64,000 nt of DNA, taken from positions 10,981-74,980 of the forward strand of contig JAKAUC010000007.1 of assembly GCA_021827865.1 (NCBI GenBank). Reading direction: 5' to 3'. The translations under genes and the position numbers were made by a program. Below the pieces are notes generated by a model. That model ran no database searches. It had not been told where the DNA came from and worked only from the letters and a program-made list of their open reading frames with translations. Positions 1 through 30,731 of this stretch are shown here, piece after piece. This DNA comes from an archaeon. Lineage in GTDB: Archaea > Thermoproteota > Nitrososphaeria > Nitrososphaerales > Gagatemarchaeaceae. Each line of letters opens with the position of its first letter. Positions within the stretch are counted from its first letter, which is position 1.

Positions 1-533
1 AACTCCATGAACGACACCGAACCGGAGCTGTAGATGGCGGAGTTGTTCACCGGTGCCCCCCTGGGTCTCAGGACCGAAATATCCGTCCCGACCCCCCCAC
101 CGAAGCTGTATGTCCGAGCGGCCTCCTTGCACCAGTCGAATATCGCTTCGATTGAGTCCTCTTTGATCTTGAAGAAGTAGCAGTTCAGGAGCGTCGACTT
201 CCTGGTCTGCCCCGCGCCGAAAAGAATCCTCCCTCCGGGGACGAAACGGTAGTTCTCAAGGAGCCAGTAGAACCTGTTGGCCCATTCCTTCTTCTTGTCC
301 TCGTCCTTCTCGGGCGAGGCGAGCTCTTTCGCGACCCTGCGCCACATGTCAGCCGGGACCTTCTCAACCTGTTGGCCCGTTGCGTCTCTCAATGCGTACT
401 TCTCGTAGAAGACCCGGGCGCGCAGCTCGTCTCCTCCGAACGCCGCCAAAGTCTCCGAGGGGAGTCTGACCTCCCCTTTCATCTCCTCTCCTACATCCGG
501 AGAGTCGCGTGGTTGTTCAACTATCGACGTCAT
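1..533 (-). CDS. nrdJ: Adenosylcobalamin-dependent (class II) ribonucleotide reductase, N-terminal part; the gene runs off the left edge
   Basis: My own minus-strand translation from the ATG at 533-531 gives MTSIVEQPRD...RVFYEKYALRD...RFVPGGRILFGAG...LLNCYFF...FGGGVGTDISVLRPRGAPVNN. It is open to position 1. It is absent from the ORF track because there is no stop in the window. Confidence 0.8.
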   Translation of the reverse strand, partial: MTSIVEQPRDSPDVGEEMKGEVRLPSETLAAFGGDELRARVFYEKYALRDATGQQVEKVPADMWRRVAKELASPEKDEDKKKEWANRFYWLLENYRFVPGGRILFGAGQTRKSTLLNCYFFKIKEDSIEAIFDWCKEAARTYSFGGGVGTDISVLRPRGAPVNNSAIYSSGSVSFME

Positions 534-560: not shown

Positions 561-570
561 GATATATAAT
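561..570 (-). promoter_or_regulatory. TATA-like box (TTATATAT on the minus strand) about 30 nt upstream of the nrdJ ATG
   Basis: This AT-rich octamer is the only AT-rich element in the 152-bp spacer. Its spacing fits an archaeal short-leader or leaderless promoter. Confidence 0.45.
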
Positions 571-574
571 TCCG

Positions 575-592
575 ACTCGGCTTATTCCGAGT
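575..592. promoter_or_regulatory. Perfect inverted repeat ACTCGG-N6-CCGAGT abutting the nrdJ TATA box in the BRE position; operator or upstream-gene terminator hairpin
   Basis: Read directly: actcgg cttatt ccgagt. Confidence 0.35.
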
Positions 593-685
593 TAACCACC
601 AAGGAGGGTACTCGCCTTTTTCTCGACGACATGAGACGTTCGACTGTGAACTGATGTTGACAAGAAGGAAGTGCGAACTGATTAG

Positions 686-2773
686 CTAGCCCGCCGTCGA
701 ATACTGCGTCATCGCGACGGACTTGCACCTCTGGCACCTGCCTGCGTTCTGTGGCAGCTTCGCGCCGCAATTTCTGCAGACCGATATGACCCTGTCCACC
801 TTGAAGTAGGATAGTTTGGGCGACGCGTTGAGGATGAGGTTGTAGATCCCCCTCACTTCGTCCGAAGATCCGTCCAGGGTGATGGAGACCCCTCCGCGCA
901 GCCCTGTGGAGAGCTTCGTCACGTAGTCCATCTTCTCCGGGTTCTCAAGGTCGGCCAGGAGAAGCCTGGGGGCCTGGGTATACGCCCCTCTCATGAGAGG
1001 CTGGATGTTCGCCTTCCCATACTTCTCAGCATCAAGGCTCGCGAGCCTCGACGCGCCGTCCAAGTCCAGCATCGCAGCTCCAAGCCTGTCAATCTTGGTC
1101 GACTTGTCGTCTGCCACCTGGGTGGCTGTCCCCACTATCTTGTCTGCGAGCTCGTATCGCGAGGCCGTTGTCGGGTCCCGTATCAGACTGGCAAGGGTCT
1201 CCTCGAAGCCGACAAAATTCATGATGAGCGGCATCGTGTCAGAAGTCACGGCATCCGAACCGGACGCCAGCGAGGGAAGGAGGCCCCTCTTCAACGCTCT
1301 CTCAATCAGCCTCCTCCTCGTCGAAAGTGCGTCCGCCGCCACTCCGATGAGGAGGGCCAGCTTGGCCCGGAAGTATGTCTCGTCTTGGTTGGAGTCATAG
1401 GCGAGCCTGGGGAGGTTAAGGCTGAGCCCGTGGAGCACGTTGATGTTGTCCGCCTGGGACTCCTGAGAGAGCACGTTGGCGTTCAGCCCGAGAAAGCTCC
1501 TACGCTGGTCAGAGGAGAAGAACGCTATCCTCCCTCCGTTGAAGATGATTGACGCGGCATCCTTCAAAGTCTTCGTATCGTCCACCCTGCTGGGCTTTGC
1601 CAGAAGAATCCTGATGTCAGGCCTCGGGGTCTCTTCGACGTAGCTCCTGTAGGCGCCGAGGGCCGCGTCTAGGGTCTTGTCCAGGACTTCGCGGCCGACG
1701 TCGTCGTGCTTGTATGGATTGAGGTCGATGCTGATGGCCGGACCGGTCGCCCCGGCAACTGGCGACCCGATGGTCTCATAGAACCTCAGGAAGAGCGATT
1801 CGAGCTCCCTCTTCCCCTTGGATCTGCAGTACGGGCCGATAAACTGAAGGAAGTTCCGGAAGGTCACTTCGTCAGAAGCTTCCCTCGTGAGCATGGAAGC
1901 CATGTTGAGCACGATGTTGAGCGCCTTTTCGGCATTCTCGGGGCTCGGTATCATGGAGGCGTTGAGTATCTTCCCCCTCGGGTTGAGCCCTGCGGACCTC
2001 ATAGACAGAAGGTCGACGAACACTGCGTCGGGCGAGAGCCCCCAGGACCCCGCGTTCGTGATGTGGATGTCGCCGGAGAGGTGAGCGTCCGCCACGTCCC
2101 TCGGGAGCTGTTCCAGCAGGAGATATTCGGAGAAGACCTGCTTCCCAGTCTGGTGAATCAGCGACTCGACGTTGCCCCCGTCGTCCCCTGCCTTCCCCAA
2201 AAGTTGGGTGACGTCGTAGATGGGCATCCCAAGTCTGGTGAGCTTGTGCCTGTACTCCTCCATGCTGTGCTCCACGAGGAGCGCGTTGACTATCTCGCGT
2301 ATGAGAGGGGCGGTCAGATACTGGGTCTGGAACTTGTAGAGCCTTGACTCAGTCTCACTCGTGATCTTCTGGGCCAGCTCCACCGGCATCCCTGCCTCCT
2401 TCACAAGTGACTGGAGTATCTTGTTGGCATTGAACTCCTCCATCGTCTGGTGCGAGGTCCGGACATACAGCTTCCCGCTCTCTACGAGCGACTGCTCTTC
2501 GATCTGCCTGGTGAGGTTGAGCACAAGCCTCCCCAGGTTGGTCACTGTGTACTTCCTCTCCTGCCTGTTGAGCTGGATGAGCAGCTGCTTCACGAGCTTT
2601 CGCAGGTGGTAGGCGAACTTCCCAGACTCCTTCTTCGACTTGAACCCGGCCAGCGTCTTCAGGGCGCTGTAGGTCAGGGGTCCCTTGATGTTCAGTATCC
2701 TCAGAATCTCGAGCCTCTGCGGAGACGCGATCACACTATAGATCGTCTTGACCCTGCGAGGAGCGGCCTGCAA
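686..2773 (-). CDS. wHTH (ArsR-like) + ATP-cone-like + anaerobic RNR (NrdD)-like protein with a C-terminal Zn ribbon but no glycyl-radical motif
   Basis: N-terminal ASPQRLEILRILN...YSALK... is an ArsR-type wHTH. KLYVRTSHQTMEEFNANKILQSLV... is ATP-cone-like. HLSGDIHITN and GLSLNLPRLA are NrdD-like motifs. The end CRNCGAKLPQNAGRCQRCKS is a Zn ribbon. The track ORF (to 2914) overlaps tRNA-Pro, so the start was moved to the in-frame TTG at 2773 (or the GTG at 2734), downstream of a TATA-like element. Confidence 0.7.
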   Translation of the reverse strand: MQAAPRRVKTIYSVIASPQRLEILRILNIKGPLTYSALKTLAGFKSKKESGKFAYHLRKLVKQLLIQLNRQERKYTVTNLGRLVLNLTRQIEEQSLVESGKLYVRTSHQTMEEFNANKILQSLVKEAGMPVELAQKITSETESRLYKFQTQYLTAPLIREIVNALLVEHSMEEYRHKLTRLGMPIYDVTQLLGKAGDDGGNVESLIHQTGKQVFSEYLLLEQLPRDVADAHLSGDIHITNAGSWGLSPDAVFVDLLSMRSAGLNPRGKILNASMIPSPENAEKALNIVLNMASMLTREASDEVTFRNFLQFIGPYCRSKGKRELESLFLRFYETIGSPVAGATGPAISIDLNPYKHDDVGREVLDKTLDAALGAYRSYVEETPRPDIRILLAKPSRVDDTKTLKDAASIIFNGGRIAFFSSDQRRSFLGLNANVLSQESQADNINVLHGLSLNLPRLAYDSNQDETYFRAKLALLIGVAADALSTRRRLIERALKRGLLPSLASGSDAVTSDTMPLIMNFVGFEETLASLIRDPTTASRYELADKIVGTATQVADDKSTKIDRLGAAMLDLDGASRLASLDAEKYGKANIQPLMRGAYTQAPRLLLADLENPEKMDYVTKLSTGLRGGVSITLDGSSDEVRGIYNLILNASPKLSYFKVDRVISVCRNCGAKLPQNAGRCQRCKSVAMTQYSTAG

Positions 2774-2790
2774 TCTGACCAGGACGTCGA

Positions 2791-2810
2791 GGTCAAAAGT
2801 ATTTAACGCT
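2791..2810 (-). promoter_or_regulatory. TATA-like element (GTTAAATACTTTT on the minus strand) between tRNA-Pro and the NrdD-like gene
   Basis: AT-rich box about 25-30 nt upstream of the candidate TTG start at 2773. Confidence 0.35.
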
Positions 2811-2845
2811 ATGATAACTCGATTTAATACGCGCTTTTGATTGGA

Positions 2846-2953
2846 TGGGGTCGCCCGGATTTGAACCGGGGGTCTCAAGCGGCCTCGGCCCCCCAGCCAC
2901 GACTGATGGGACACCCAAGGCTTGAAGCCTAGACCAGACTAGCCGACGACCCC
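2846..2953 (-). tRNA. tRNA-Pro(UGG) with a 32-nt intron at the canonical 37/38 position (about 2882-2913)
   Basis: Hand fold. Acceptor GGGGTCG/CGACCCC, discriminator A. D stem GGCT/GGCT with G:U pairs. Anticodon stem CAAGC/GCTTG, loop CTTGGG|intron|C. Variable loop AGACC. T arm CCCGG-TTCAAAT-CCGGG. Confidence 0.8.
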
Positions 2954-2981: not shown

Positions 2982-3587
2982 TTATGGGTTCTGGGGAGAT
3001 GATGGCCTTCCCCTTGAGACGAAGCGGTTCCCTCGTTCGAAGAACCTCCACCTTGTTGACCTCCCAGCCGACACGCCCACTCTGGGGCTTGTCCCGATTT
3101 CTCTGGCCATCCGGCCGTGCTCCAAGAAGATCCTGTCTGACATGACCAAGTCTTCTCCGTCCAGTTCCTTGCCTATGCCCAGGGCCTTCGTCAGGTTTCC
3201 AGGGCCCGAGGCCAGTCTGTCGACTGCAATTGGCCCCCTATTCTTCACCATCACTGCGATTCCCTCTTCCGGTTCAATCGCCCTCAGCAGTACCGCGCCC
3301 GGGGTTCCAGTAGGCTCCGTGGTGACGTTAAGGCAGAAGTGCATGCCCATGGTGAAGTAGACGTAGGCATGCCCCGGCGGTCCGAACATCACGCCGTTCC
3401 GGGATGTCTTCCCTCTGTACGCGTGACTTGCAGGGTCCTTCGGGCCCCTGTATGCCTCAGTCTCGACGACTATCCCTGATATCCTCCTGCCGCGTATAAC
3501 CCTGACAAGGCGGCACCCGACCAGGTCACTTGCCACCTCGGGGGTGTACCGGCAGAAGAACTCCCTCGGGATAACGCTCCGCTTCAA
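2982..3587 (-). CDS. mpg: DNA-3-methyladenine glycosylase (AAG/Mpg family)
   Basis: IVVETEAYRGPKDPASHAYRGKTSRNGVMFGPPGHAYVYFTMGMHFCLNV is the typical Mpg core. Confidence 0.85.
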   Translation of the reverse strand: MKRSVIPREFFCRYTPEVASDLVGCRLVRVIRGRRISGIVVETEAYRGPKDPASHAYRGKTSRNGVMFGPPGHAYVYFTMGMHFCLNVTTEPTGTPGAVLLRAIEPEEGIAVMVKNRGPIAVDRLASGPGNLTKALGIGKELDGEDLVMSDRIFLEHGRMAREIGTSPRVGVSAGRSTRWRFFERGNRFVSRGRPSSPQNP

Positions 3588-5386: not shown

Positions 5387-5517
5387 TGGGGGTAGTCGGA
5401 TTTGAACCGACGGTCTACAGGTTTCTTAGGCAGCTCCAATGTCAAGTCATCCACGTTTCCGTGTCAGCCATTGGTGTCACTGGAGCCTGTCGCCCTGCCT
5501 GGCTGGGCTATACCCCC
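5387..5517 (-). tRNA. tRNA-Trp(CCA) with a 57-nt intron (about 5423-5479) carrying a K-turn / box C'-D'-like element
   Basis: Hand fold. GGGGGTA/TACCCCC, D arm GCCC-AGCCAGGCA-GGGC, anticodon stem ACAGG/CCTGT, loop CTCCAG|intron|A, T arm GTCGG-TTCAAAT-CCGAC. The intron contains CUGA-CACG-GAAA-CGUG-GAUGA and UUGGAGC, which is antisense to the anticodon loop. Confidence 0.85.
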
Positions 5518-28700: not shown

Positions 28701-28769
28701 CCGGGGCCCGCGCAGGCTCGAAGCTTGTCCCGAGGCGTCAGAGAGGTCTCCCAGGAGAGGCCGTCTCAT
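25761..28769 (-). CDS. lhr: Lhr-type DExH helicase (Lhr-core + DEAD-associated domain) with a C-terminal Zn ribbon and HhH
   Basis: APTGSGKTEAAMLP, VVVDELHNL, SATVG, HHGSL, QRVGRSGHR, DVLAHQVAGYL, CVKCGS...CGSCGS, YGIGPQTASRIL. The true start is probably downstream of 28769, for example the GTG near 28625, because the first 45-50 codons overlap the divergent gene. Confidence 0.85.
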   Translation of the reverse strand: MRRPLLGDLSDASGQASSLRGPRALLDIAPREAGIQFHRPLSRDTLNRVAVLSPLLSARTAFEALAPAVRGFLADTGMVEPTPPQIEAWPLVSRGGDVLVVAPTGSGKTEAAMLPLLSRLLSEGHGDGISLLYITPMRALNRDMLKRLQAWCARLGLTVDVRHGDTPQSQRSKQSTHPPDVLVTTPETLQAILPGRRMRDNLSHLKAVVVDELHNLVESKRGVQLCVGLERLRKVAPDFQLVALSATVGTPAVAAKFLFGNRSVKIVKADAPKEFAFAIEYPVPDPASQSAAKETYSAPDLAARLTRINALIDGHTSTLIFVNSRTLAEMLGEKLARLRKDVGVHHGSLPREERERVEQAFKAGELKALVCTSTLELGIDVGSVDLVVQYMSPRQVTSLVQRVGRSGHRLGRVSKGVLVTVSADDIMESTASIRSAAQKRIEPTRPYSNSLDVLAHQVAGYLMDFETMEASRMLAEVRKAAPFEGLQDDAFLRTVGYLAELRKLRFDGTTLSRTRLTREYYYENLSMIPDETRYLVVDVSTNQTVGILGEEFVLLKAKVGIHFVIKGRVWQVEQIAEDRKIYVTPVEDPLAAVPGWDGEMLPIPYELAVETGSLRREVSDALDAGQDAVERVEGHIPGDTAARALVVDQIAEQKKMGASVPSDRLVLFEGFGRYLIVHLCFGESVNRTFAYVFEEILSRRGLVRVWWLDGYRLLMELTTETGELDLEAIATELMRLTPEELERTYAVAAQRNFPFPARVKFVAERFGALKRGKLIAHPNLCSLPTRFEKTPIFEEALQETGRDLIDMGHSKEILMAVAGGKIAVETFQAGERPTPIAYSLLYRYLEVPEAVAPDSLGKSSYQRLKATIFGTEVSLLCVKCGSDQGQTTVGEVPEEPRCGSCGSGLLAPCYCGTAKLSELIKKREARTQLNEEERSELSRARRGADLVLSYGRKAVVAQTVYGIGPQTASRILAEMHDDEEAFYRDLLEAKIRFVTTRQYWGS

Positions 28770-30731
28770 CTTACCACAGTAAAGGAGATCATCCTGGAGA
28801 ATTTCATGAGTTACGAGTATGCCCGGATACCCCTCCGCGAGGGCTTGAACCTGGTAGTCGGTCCCAACGGGGCCGGCAAGTCCTCGGTCCTCCTCGCCAT
28901 TTCCGTAGCGTTCGGGCAGGCGTACACCGAAAGGTCAAGGAAGCTCTCAGACCTCATCAGGCGCGGTAAAGACATCGCCCGGGTTTCTCTCATCTTCGAC
29001 AACTCCCAGAAGGCGGGGCGGAGGCCGATTCCCTACTCGAAGTCGGACACCTTCATGCTCAGCAGGTACCTGAGGCGCGACGGTTCGTACTGGTTCGAGG
29101 CGGACTACAAGGAGATAGACAAGAGCGAGGTCGTGAGGCTCCTCAGCGAGTTCGGCATCAACCCAGACAACCTGCTCATCATCATGCACCAGGGGATGAT
29201 AGAGGAGCTGGGCGCCGTCACCCCCCAGGAGCGCCTGAGGATGGTCGAAGAGGCGGTCGGGTTCTCCGAGTACAGGCAGAGGATCACGTTGGCCGAGCAG
29301 GAGCTGGGCGGACTGGTGGGAGAGGAGAGCTCCCTCCTCCAACTCATAGACAACGCCAACCAGGCCCTCGAATACTGGAAGCAGGTGTACGACCGCTACC
29401 AGGAGAAGCGGAGGCAAATCGAACACAGAGACCTCCTGACCAAGGAGCTTCTGTGGAGCACTGAGAACAAGCTCAGCAAGGCACTACAGGGCGCCGAGGA
29501 GAAGATTGCTTCGAAGACGAAGGCCCTTGAAGACCTGAAGTCGCAGCAGACCGAGGTCTCTTCCGACGCCGAGCAGACCCACCAGACGCTCCTGGACAAG
29601 CAGGTGGAACTGCGCAAGCTCTACTATGCCCTCGTGCGGGCGGAGTCGGAGAAGGCGAAGGACGAGTCGGCTCGCGACGCCTACCGGTCGATAAAGGACG
29701 ACCTCTCAGGGCTGTCAACCACGATTGACGAGCTCCTGTCAAAAGGGGGGGACAGGAGCGCGAAGAGGCTCAAGGAGCTCGCCGCGTACATCGAGCAAAA
29801 GAGCCTATCGGCCGAAGAGGATGCCCAGCGCCGCAAGACGGAGCTGGACAGAGAAGTCTCTTCCCTGCAGCCTGACATCACCAAGACCGAGGACCTCATC
29901 AGGCGCGCTACCGACAGCTACGTGTCCTTCAAAGTCAAGGCTGAGGTACTCTCGTACCGCATCAGAGTGACGGAGTCTGACCTCCACGACCTCGAGAGGA
30001 CTGCTAGAGAGTACAAAGCGGAGCTGGACAAACTGGCTCCGGACCTCGAAAGGGCGGGGGGCAGGATGGAGACAGCGCGCCAGCCCTATGAAGTCTCAGA
30101 GGAGCTGAAGCTTGTGTCCGCCCACATCCAAAAGATGCAGGACGTGCCCGACGACGCGGAGAAAATCTACAACGACTACTCTGGCAACATCGAAGAGCTG
30201 AAGGCGAAGCTCGCAATGCTCCAGGAGAACAAGAAGTCCATGCTCTCGGAGCTGGACTCGCGTAAGGGCATCTGGAGGAAAGCCATGGAAGATCTGGTTG
30301 AAACTGTGGATCCATCCTATCAGGCGGTCCTGTCCGCAACGGACGCCAGCGGCTTCATAAAGTTCGAGCAGGCTGACACCATCGAAGACGCCGGCCTCGA
30401 CCTATACGTCGGGTTCAGGGGGGGCGCCCCCACCACCCTCGATCCGTTCACCCAGAGCGGCGGGGAGCGGTCGGTGGCCCTGATGGCTTTCATCCTGTCC
30501 CTCCAGGCGAGGATAGTCTCCCCCCTGAGGGCGATGGACGAGTTCGACATACATATGGACCCCAAGAACAGGGAAGCGATGTTCAAGATGATTCTGTCGC
30601 AGATGAAGCAGAGGGAGGCCTCACAATACATCGTAATCACCCCGTCGATACTGACGGTGTTCGACAGGAGCGCCCACGTCATCACGGTCCAGGCGGTCCA
30701 CGGCTCGTCCGAGGTCAAGGAGCTGAAGTAA
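28725..30731 (+). CDS. SMC-superfamily ATPase, short coiled coil, no hinge or zinc hook; Smc5/6-like head motifs
   Basis: ILENFMSYEY, Walker A GPNGAGKSS, Q-loop IIMHQG, signature QSGGERS, Walker B AMDEFDIHMD, C-terminal QYIVITPSIL. About 330 aa of heptad-rich sequence separates the head halves. Confidence 0.8.
   Translation: MSRGVREVSQERPSHLTTVKEIILENFMSYEYARIPLREGLNLVVGPNGAGKSSVLLAISVAFGQAYTERSRKLSDLIRRGKDIARVSLIFDNSQKAGRRPIPYSKSDTFMLSRYLRRDGSYWFEADYKEIDKSEVVRLLSEFGINPDNLLIIMHQGMIEELGAVTPQERLRMVEEAVGFSEYRQRITLAEQELGGLVGEESSLLQLIDNANQALEYWKQVYDRYQEKRRQIEHRDLLTKELLWSTENKLSKALQGAEEKIASKTKALEDLKSQQTEVSSDAEQTHQTLLDKQVELRKLYYALVRAESEKAKDESARDAYRSIKDDLSGLSTTIDELLSKGGDRSAKRLKELAAYIEQKSLSAEEDAQRRKTELDREVSSLQPDITKTEDLIRRATDSYVSFKVKAEVLSYRIRVTESDLHDLERTAREYKAELDKLAPDLERAGGRMETARQPYEVSEELKLVSAHIQKMQDVPDDAEKIYNDYSGNIEELKAKLAMLQENKKSMLSELDSRKGIWRKAMEDLVETVDPSYQAVLSATDASGFIKFEQADTIEDAGLDLYVGFRGGAPTTLDPFTQSGGERSVALMAFILSLQARIVSPLRAMDEFDIHMDPKNREAMFKMILSQMKQREASQYIVITPSILTVFDRSAHVITVQAVHGSSEVKELK

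Follow-up and report, generated by a model that had tools for sequence, protein, structure and literature searches.

A non-catalytic class III ribonucleotide reductase homologue fused to a winged helix, a candidate regulator of the neighbouring class II reductase gene in Nitrososphaeria

The 64,000-nucleotide stretch of archaeal DNA analysed here (the window; contig JAKAUC010000007.1, Gagatemarchaeaceae) contains a gene for a homologue of NrdD, the catalytic subunit of class III ribonucleotide reductase (RNR), which has lost the residues of radical chemistry and carries a winged helix-turn-helix (wHTH) and an ATP-cone-like domain at its N-terminus. A first-pass annotation of the window had proposed that this is a dead NrdD homologue and a candidate RNR regulator, and both proposals held. 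The protein is almost certainly a non-catalytic NrdD derivative (hereafter pseudo-NrdD), and its candidacy as a regulator has comparative support from an invariant gene order, a near-invariant wHTH and cone, and a sequence motif common to its own promoter and to that of nrdJ, the adjacent class II RNR gene. We consider it probable that the protein acts as a transcription factor on nrdJ and on its own gene, and give slightly better than an even chance to the fuller reading, in which it is a one-component, nucleotide-sensing transcription factor for both genes built from a class III RNR catalytic subunit. To our knowledge, essentially nothing is known of how RNR expression is controlled in archaea. 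The protein occurs in every sampled lineage of Nitrososphaeria, including globally abundant ammonia oxidisers, and if our reading is right it supplies a concrete regulator, operator and target.

The coding sequence, its domains and the positions of the lost catalytic elements are as follows.

686..2773, minus strand: coding sequence of the wHTH / ATP-cone-like / pseudo-NrdD protein, 695 aa, TTG start, TAG stop (open reading frame (ORF) translation, homologue lengths, Pfam and NCBIfam matches)
2519..2743, minus strand: winged helix-turn-helix, aa 11-85, with the recognition helix at about aa 48-62 (GKFAYHLRKL) and the wing at aa 66-77 (PF24038 DUF7347, 38.4 bits, cut-off 27.6)
2252..2467, minus strand: ATP-cone-like domain, aa 103-174 (PF03477, 30.0 bits, cut-off 25.8)
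794..2221, minus strand: NrdD-type barrel core, aa 185-660, without radical residues (PF13597 (NRDD), 92.6 bits)
2024..2026, minus strand: A250, at the position of the second active-site Cys (T4 NrdD Cys79) (HMMER alignment to 1h78, MAFFT alignment with P0265)
1499..1513, minus strand: finger-loop remnant DQRRS, aa 421-425, loop shortened, with R424 at the position of the thiyl-radical Cys (T4 C290, GCR motif) (HMMER and MAFFT alignments)
716..787, minus strand: C-terminal Zn ribbon (C666, C669, C680, C683) (Zn-ribbon Pfam matches; the four Cys are invariant among aligned relatives)
686..715, minus strand: nine-residue stub AMTQYSTAG and stop codon in place of the glycyl-radical domain (relatives' alignment, MAFFT alignment with P0265)

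Catalytic positions were mapped with HMMER alignments to T4 NrdD (1h78) and with a MAFFT alignment that included, with its intein removed, P0265, a bona fide archaeal NrdD carrying ..AMGCRTRL.. and ..FSRITGYLQN... The class III blocks on which the first-pass annotation rested (HLSGDIHITN, LSLNLPRLA, DQRRSFLGL and CRNCG..CQRCKS) are all in the protein. The position of T4 C290 is occupied by Arg or Lys in 22/22 aligned relatives, and that of T4 C79 by Ala, Thr or Ser. The Asn-x-Asn flap, which has a role in substrate handling by NrdD (PMC12662201), is also gone, and with this loss, that of the second Cys and the retained NrdD fold the case is stronger than the first-pass annotation made it: true archaeal NrdDs read ENANL(M/Q)YNPE, whereas the window protein has DDGGNVE and a 4-residue deletion in the MAFFT alignment. 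Five Cys are found in the whole protein, four in the Zn ribbon and a fifth, C316, that is not conserved. At the C-terminus the chain ends, as had been stated, 12 residues past the last ribbon Cys, and there is no glycyl-radical motif (R-V/I-x-G-Y/F). The claim that Gln replaces the radical Gly does not stand, since QYSTAG aligns with KFSRIT of true NrdD (...KFSRITGYLQN...) and the chain, which includes this Gln (Q690), stops just before the Gly. The stop (..QYSTA-x-stop) is identical in 22/22 aligned relatives, down to 63% identity, and a frameshift or sequencing error hiding a longer C-terminus is excluded because of this shared position. The losses, the shortened finger loop included, are common to the 22 aligned relatives and recur in nearly all of ~150 representatives at 50% identity, and both the stop and the losses are kept in >100 clusters.

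The protein has an NrdD fold. Its profile matches the T4 NrdD structure 1h78 at E 1e-7. An AlphaFold (AF2) model from 22 close homologues was unusable (predicted local distance difference test score, pLDDT, 54.8), which was remedied by a deeper alignment, A2, of 106 diverse family members; the resulting model has a pLDDT of 90.8 and a predicted template modelling (pTM) score of 0.81. In this model the wHTH (three helices and a beta-hairpin wing) is followed by a single long connecting helix at 79-99, the cone, the alpha/beta barrel and the ribbon, and the wHTH region has H-H-H-beta-beta topology with pLDDT 91-96. When the model was compared with the Protein Data Bank (PDB) using Foldseek, the top 36 matches were all class III RNRs (E 6e-22 to 2e-13, template modelling (TM) scores 0.46-0.69) from S. 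thermophilus, T. maritima, P. copri and T4, with class I RNRs and other glycyl-radical enzymes far behind. Searched by sequence against the PDB, the wHTH and the cone on their own gave only marginal MarR/ArsR matches (E ~1), and Pfam classes the DUF7347 wHTH among domains of unknown function. The wHTH belongs to the translated protein, because >100 clusters of homologues share both its exact length of 695 residues and the N-terminus (M/L)QAAPRRVKTIY; the true start is accordingly the TTG at 2773, as the first-pass annotation had it.

The position of the gene next to nrdJ, which had been noted in the window, is general. The stop codon of pseudo-NrdD (686-688) is followed by a 152-nt spacer and then by the nrdJ ATG at 533 on the same strand:

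1..533, minus strand: 5' part of nrdJ (class II, B12-dependent RNR), whose N-terminus lacks an ATP-cone; the gene leaves the window (translation; tblastn against 76 loci)

Its translation in the window includes ..LNCYF..GGGVGTDISVLRPRGAPV.., and the full-length relative in locus L001 has the Ribonuc_red_lgN, Ribonuc_red_lgC and TSCPD domains. A genome search with two wHTH peptides, LAGFKSKK and ESGKFAYH, placed the pseudo-NrdD gene in at least 534 species-representative genomes. The named genomes among the best 80 loci, which were listed, all belong to Nitrososphaeria (Nitrososphaerales, Nitrosopumilaceae, Nitrosotalea, Nitrosomirales and the non-ammonia-oxidising Gagatemarchaeum). Synteny was assessed in 81 loci, these 80 and L001; four end at a contig edge, and in 77/77 of the remainder nrdJ lies directly downstream on the same strand (76 were found by tblastn with the window NrdJ N-terminus and the last, L073, with a full-length query). 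This linkage holds from 95% down to 41% protein identity. An exhaustive search of 50%-identity clusters gave 211 at E < 1e-30, with named members from Bathyarchaeota and Thorarchaeota; nearly all representatives have the wHTH and have lost the GCR Cys, and on a Bathyarchaeota contig the family member again lies immediately upstream of nrdJ.

Half-sites of the GTCAA/TTGAC type (variants GTCAAC, GTTGAC, GTTAAC and GTTCAC) stand at fixed places in the aligned nrdJ spacers and in the pseudo-NrdD promoters, while their flanks vary. The candidate sites in the window and the TATA boxes that position them are listed here.

646..661, minus strand: candidate distal composite site GTCAAC-ATCA-GTTCAC, ~80-95 nt upstream of the nrdJ TATA box (spacer alignment, pattern search)
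631..640, minus strand: conserved AACGTCTCAT element, (G)CGTCTCA, ~10 nt downstream of the distal GTCAA cluster (spacer alignment and marked sequences)
591..596, minus strand: candidate proximal half-site, GTTAAC here and GTCAAC in relatives, 22 nt upstream of the nrdJ TATA box (spacer alignment)
562..569, minus strand: TATA box of nrdJ, TTATATAT (sequence; ATATATA in relatives)
2800..2806, minus strand: TATA box of the pseudo-NrdD gene, TTAAATA (read from sequence; relatives keep it as TTAAATAC)
2776..2796, minus strand: candidate own-promoter site, a TTGAC half-site at 2792-2796 between TATA box and start, with a TGACC-N10-GGTCA palindrome that reaches the start codon in the window (repeat search)
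575..592, strand not assigned: inverted repeat ACTCGG-N6-CCGAGT (sequence)

Across clades the distal site reads [TTGAC-N5-]GTCAA-N5-GTT(C/G/A)AC. In other clades the element at 631-640 reads GTCTCA-TTGAC and so runs into a further TTGAC; from such alignments it may be either an extended half-site or the site of a second factor. Some lineages have another copy of the half-site between the nrdJ TATA box and the ATG. At the pseudo-NrdD promoter the order is TTAAATAC-(w)(w)-TTGAC, and TTGAC directly follows the TATA box in most loci of at least 62% identity; clade D has instead a GTCAA-N6-TTGAC palindrome upstream. The repeat at 575-592, which had been suggested as the operator, does exist. We dismissed it in that role: both of its arms differ in relatives, a 6+6 repeat is near chance in 150 nt, and the conserved sites are those at 646-661, 591-596 and 2792-2796.

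The motif is strongly enriched at both promoters. GTCAA/TTGAC occurs 169 times in nrdJ-upstream spacers against 39 +/- 6 in dinucleotide shuffles, and 87 times in the 100 nt upstream of pseudo-NrdD genes against 18 +/- 4, although these statistics overstate independence, the motif being short and the loci related by descent, which is a first point against reading them as operators. The excess persists in the subset of <55% identity. In an unbiased k-mer comparison of both promoter regions with other intergenic DNA, GTCAA was the top 5-mer (z = 32, 5.9x, 138/154 regions) and TGTCAA the top 6-mer (12.7x). The pattern GTCAA-N5-GTTVAC has 2 matches in the window where 0.03 were expected. The match other than the distal site, at 29714-29729 on the minus strand (GTCAATCGTGGTTGAC), lies inside an SMC/Rad50-like ORF (28725-30731) and may be a chance occurrence or an intragenic site.

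Conservation along the protein was measured as identity to the window protein among Nitrososphaerales relatives (A1) and in the broad family (A2). Mean identity is 97% (A1) and 47% (A2) in the wHTH, 94% and 60% in the cone, 64% and 27% in the core, and 67% and 31% in the ribbon and tail. The ArsR-like recognition helix is nearly invariant. These figures place the constrained function in the N-terminal modules, with the core maintained as a fold.

A regulatory role is supported by comparative genomics as a strong hypothesis, and DNA binding, ligand, dimerisation and the sign of regulation are what we infer from it in the following mechanism. The protein would dimerise as NrdD does, and the two winged helices of the dimer would bind GTCAA/TTGAC half-sites ~10-11 bp apart. 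The site between its own TATA box and start occupies the usual position of an archaeal repressor and would give autoregulation. At nrdJ there would be a distal cluster and a proximal site upstream of the TATA box, with a further downstream site in some lineages; sites upstream of the TFB recognition element (BRE) and TATA box could fit activation, or repression with lineage-specific downstream copies and possible looping. A nucleotide in the cone and/or in the former effector and substrate pockets of NrdD would reposition the cones. ATP and dATP do reposition the cones of dimeric NrdDs and in this way govern the connector to the barrel (PMC12662201). One long helix is predicted to join each winged helix to its cone, so that cone movement would change DNA binding: the two recognition helices would be spaced or oriented differently, and half-sites lying about one helical turn from each other would be occupied to a different extent. 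The outcome would be nrdJ transcription matched to the dNTP/NTP pool.

Several further observations weigh against this mechanism. The GTCAA sites could be bound by some other factor. The core evolves much faster than the N-terminus, and the distant family members P0174, P0222 and P0271 adjoin no RNR gene. The cone lacks the canonical Lys-Arg phosphate hairpin, which touches nucleotide phosphates in EcRNR and StNrdD (PMC12662201), and an inner cone need not bind nucleotide (PMC9669993). The specificity site, too, may have decayed, as the effector-contact position T4 Q114 corresponds to a variable residue at 290 (N/D/T/S/G). The mapping of specificity-site residues (T4 Q114/E181) was itself found unreliable, the registers of bacterial and archaeal NrdDs being different.

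The type of the cone bears on the ligand. An ATP-cone-like module had been claimed and is present, but it does not have the canonical hairpin: it reads VRTS, not V-x-K-R, and is of the inner-cone type, the VRTS cone being the inner cone of the true archaeal NrdDs P0265 and P0269. These two proteins, we note in passing, both bear inteins. The residues E112, K118, I119 and T154 are kept. In our own alignment E112, K118 and I119 correspond to E. coli E15, K21 and I22, while the K9/R10 hairpin becomes T106/S107 with R105 adjacent (residue roles in E. coli numbering, PMC12662201). Binding of ATP or dATP is not assured, because the cone is of the inner type without the Lys-Arg hairpin, and we place nucleotide sensing by this protein a little short of an even chance.

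An unlikely explanation, which nevertheless agrees with part of the data, is that the protein, as a transcription factor, serves another regulon or a broader one (replication, repair, cell cycle), perhaps with no nucleotide sensing, and that its adjacency to nrdJ is inherited gene order. In its favour are the distant members that are not beside RNR genes, a DNA glycosylase gene as a conserved upstream neighbour, and a cone without the phosphate-binding hairpin. However, the GTCAA/TTGAC sites are concentrated in the nrdJ spacer and the pseudo-NrdD promoter, where they reach 8.2 per kb; 235 other intergenic gaps in these loci have 1.8 per kb. Moreover, the linkage to nrdJ survives the fall from 95% to 41% identity and recurs in another phylum.

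Quite improbable, in our judgement, is a role at the protein level, in which pseudo-NrdD would serve NrdJ as an allosteric subunit or non-catalytic partner, or would buffer or sense nucleotides, and the winged helix would make protein contacts. Pseudoenzymes often regulate their active relatives, the two genes are tightly co-located, and NrdJ of the window type has no ATP-cone of its own. But Nitrosopumilaceae keep the gene although their NrdJ does have a cone, and we know of no hetero-complexes of class II and class III RNRs. The near invariance of the recognition helix and the operator-like motif at both promoters also count against this role. NrdJ of Nitrosopumilaceae-type lineages (L079 8268-10400, L048 6226-8300) has an N-terminal ATP-cone of 64-75 bits, which is missing from window-type (Nitrososphaerales) and Bathyarchaeota NrdJ; the pseudo-NrdD gene accompanies NrdJ with or without a cone.

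It is very hard to maintain that the protein has kept an enzymatic function, whether ribonucleotide reduction by means of other residues or a new activity on nucleotides, although the NrdD fold is kept and databases call it anaerobic ribonucleoside-triphosphate reductase. All four defining catalytic and substrate elements are gone and the only conserved Cys are those of the Zn ribbon, conservation is lowest in the core, and the score against the NrdD equivalog TIGR02487 (NCBIfam) is 85 bits for a cut-off of 326.35, with other NrdD equivalog models also far under their cut-offs. No NrdG-like CxxxCxxC ORF, as expected of an activase, was found in the 64-kb window, where the sole radical-SAM-like match is LipA-like. 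The gene is, moreover, universal in obligate aerobes. Orthologues are found in the enriched aerobic ammonia oxidisers Ca. Nitrosotenuis cloacae, chungbukensis and aquarius, and an O2-sensitive glycyl-radical RNR would be pointless there because of that way of life. The idea of a decaying pseudogene or assembly artefact, such as a frameshift hiding the true C-terminus, which has the truncated-looking C-terminus alone on its side, is already refuted by the frame intact over 695 codons, the stop identical in relatives, N-terminal domains 94-97% identical among hundreds of orthologues and a confident AF2 model.

Annotation of the family is inconsistent. In RefSeq, UniRef and IMG the Ca. Nitrosotenuis copies P0299, P0301, P0357, P0362, P0381 and P0386 are named 'anaerobic ribonucleoside-triphosphate reductase (formate)', and other copies carry the NCBI name 'ArsR family transcriptional regulator'. 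For the Ca. Nitrosotenuis orthologues the RNR name is probably a misnomer, and in obligate aerobes and many metagenome-assembled genomes such a label can mislead metabolic inference on anaerobic capacity.

Returning to pseudo-NrdD as a transcription factor, the family alignment suggests how it may have arisen. A two-cone archaeal NrdD would have swapped its outer cone for a winged helix. Loss of both active-site Cys (the thiyl Cys and the second one) and of the Asn-x-Asn flap would have followed, joined in the Nitrososphaeria branch by loss of the glycyl-radical domain; NrdD fold, Zn ribbon and inner cone would have been retained through the conversion. Longer members of the family (740-780 aa) keep a glycyl-domain-like tail, sometimes with a Gly (SRISGML, GRISGRF), and such intermediates in Bathyarchaeota and Thorarchaeota, which still show this remnant, suggest a stepwise decay in which the inner cone (VRTS...YLTAPLIRE...YRHKLTRLGMPVYD) was retained. 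One family member, P0165 (711 aa), keeps a finger-loop Cys (SGCRL) and part of the wHTH but no glycyl motif, and may be an evolutionary intermediate. In locus L086 (6001-10159) two pseudo-NrdDs stand in tandem beside pyrB/pyrI, P0266 with a wHTH and a 627-aa NRDD-like partner without one. The downstream ORF was considered as a true class III RNR and dismissed: its GCR Cys is gone and Ala replaces the radical Gly (SRSIAFYG), so it is a second pseudo-NrdD and the locus is not evidence for linkage to class III RNR.

The promoter region of the pseudo-NrdD gene is bounded upstream by a tRNA gene:

2846..2953, minus strand: tRNA gene with a 35-nt intron (Rfam RF00005, 45.9 bits, permissive scan)

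A longer mechanical ORF at 686..2914 overlaps this tRNA and was dismissed. The 3' end of the tRNA is kept upstream of the pseudo-NrdD gene in several relatives. A second intron-bearing tRNA gene lies at 5387-5517 on the minus strand, and both were missed by ARAGORN. The start codon of pseudo-NrdD lies ~27 nt downstream of its TATA box, and because of this short distance its mRNA is probably leaderless. An Rfam scan of the nrdJ leader (520-700) found no family, such as a cobalamin riboswitch, even at E <= 1. The conserved upstream neighbour of the regulator-nrdJ pair is a 3-methyladenine DNA glycosylase gene (Pur_DNA_glyco; 2982-3587 on the minus strand of the window, 5026-5544 in L001), and synteny between the window and L001 extends to Trm112 and DUF1512 genes farther along. 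Inteins interrupt nrdJ in several relatives, as in L001 (8208-13721, 1837 aa, Intein_splicing and LAGLIDADG matches), and the nrdJ genes of L012, L020, L022, L026 and L042 give split tblastn matches.

If pseudo-NrdD acts as proposed, the route to it is unusual: a radical enzyme stripped of its chemistry and kept as a fold and allosteric sensor would guard another class of RNR. We tentatively extend this to a proposal that we think somewhat more apt to fail than to hold. TACK and Asgard archaea (Nitrososphaeria universally, and also Bathyarchaeota and Thorarchaeota) may control their dNTP supply by a class III RNR subunit turned ligand-sensing transcription factor, whose own allosteric machinery, cone movement and effector pockets, would make a winged helix bind and release GTCAA-type operators upstream of nrdJ and in its own promoter. 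It would then be a counterpart of bacterial NrdR with a separate evolutionary origin, and perhaps a master switch linking the nucleotide pool to replication in ammonia-oxidising archaea.

Among known systems, NrdD (TIGR02487/PF13597; 1H78, 4COI, 8P2S, 9D3X) is the best structural match, with homology that extends from the cone through the barrel to the Zn ribbon. Its sequence blocks LNLPR, (A)DAHxSGxIH and RLAxLD and its four-Cys Zn ribbon are found in the window protein too. True archaeal NrdDs also have the inner cone with VRTS, and the linker YLTAPLIRE...YRHKLTRLGMPVYD is common to them and the window protein. In contrast to NrdD, the window protein has neither of the two active-site Cys (thiyl and second), no Asn-x-Asn flap and no glycyl-radical domain; it has a shorter finger loop and a winged helix in place of the outer cone, fails the equivalog cut-off, and occurs in aerobes.

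The likeness to NrdR, the RNR-specific repressor of bacteria, is one of plan: a DNA-binding module fused to an RNR-type cone and encoded with nrd genes, which would presumably be its targets. NrdR consists of an N-terminal Zn ribbon and an ATP-cone and binds repeated, helically phased sites near nrd promoters (PMC9110341, PMC12176259). The DNA-binding domains, a wHTH here and a Zn ribbon in NrdR, are not homologous, and the window protein carries an NrdD core of ~500 aa that is missing from NrdR and a cone without the K-R hairpin. Paired 16-bp NrdR boxes were sought, and there is no such palindrome in 534-685; the GTCAA/TTGAC half-sites are unlike NrdR boxes. Judged by sequence features, the window protein shares nothing that defines NrdR membership except a cone. 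The contrast had earlier been drawn with the statement that archaea lack NrdR, which needs correction, as NrdR is rare among them rather than absent (PMC9110341).

With ArsR/SmtB and MarR proteins the window protein shares wHTH topology and an ArsR-like recognition helix (..F.YHL..L). The wHTH that had been called ArsR-type is confirmed as a wHTH by its DUF7347 match, but not as a member of the ArsR family, whose models it matches under their cut-offs (PF12840 HTH_20 24.3 vs 27; NF033788 18.6 vs 55), and the resemblance is one of fold only. It has no metal-sensor module and has ~600 extra residues. Full-text literature searches found no description of this protein family.

In design the protein fits the general kind of enzyme-derived one-component regulators, in which a winged helix is fused to the enzyme or pseudoenzyme fold of the pathway that is controlled, as would be the case here. 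PurR of B. subtilis is a wHTH joined to an inactive phosphoribosyltransferase fold. NrtR combines a Nudix-like domain with a wHTH (PMC2330246), and archaeal RbkR combines riboflavin kinase with a wHTH (PMC5397151). Such regulators were recognised by comparative genomics from synteny and a conserved upstream motif, and both features are present here. Two differences set pseudo-NrdD apart from them: its putative target is a class II RNR whereas the ancestor of the sensor is a class III RNR, and an entire catalytic subunit of a radical enzyme, allosteric apparatus included, would serve as the sensor, which is unprecedented among those families.

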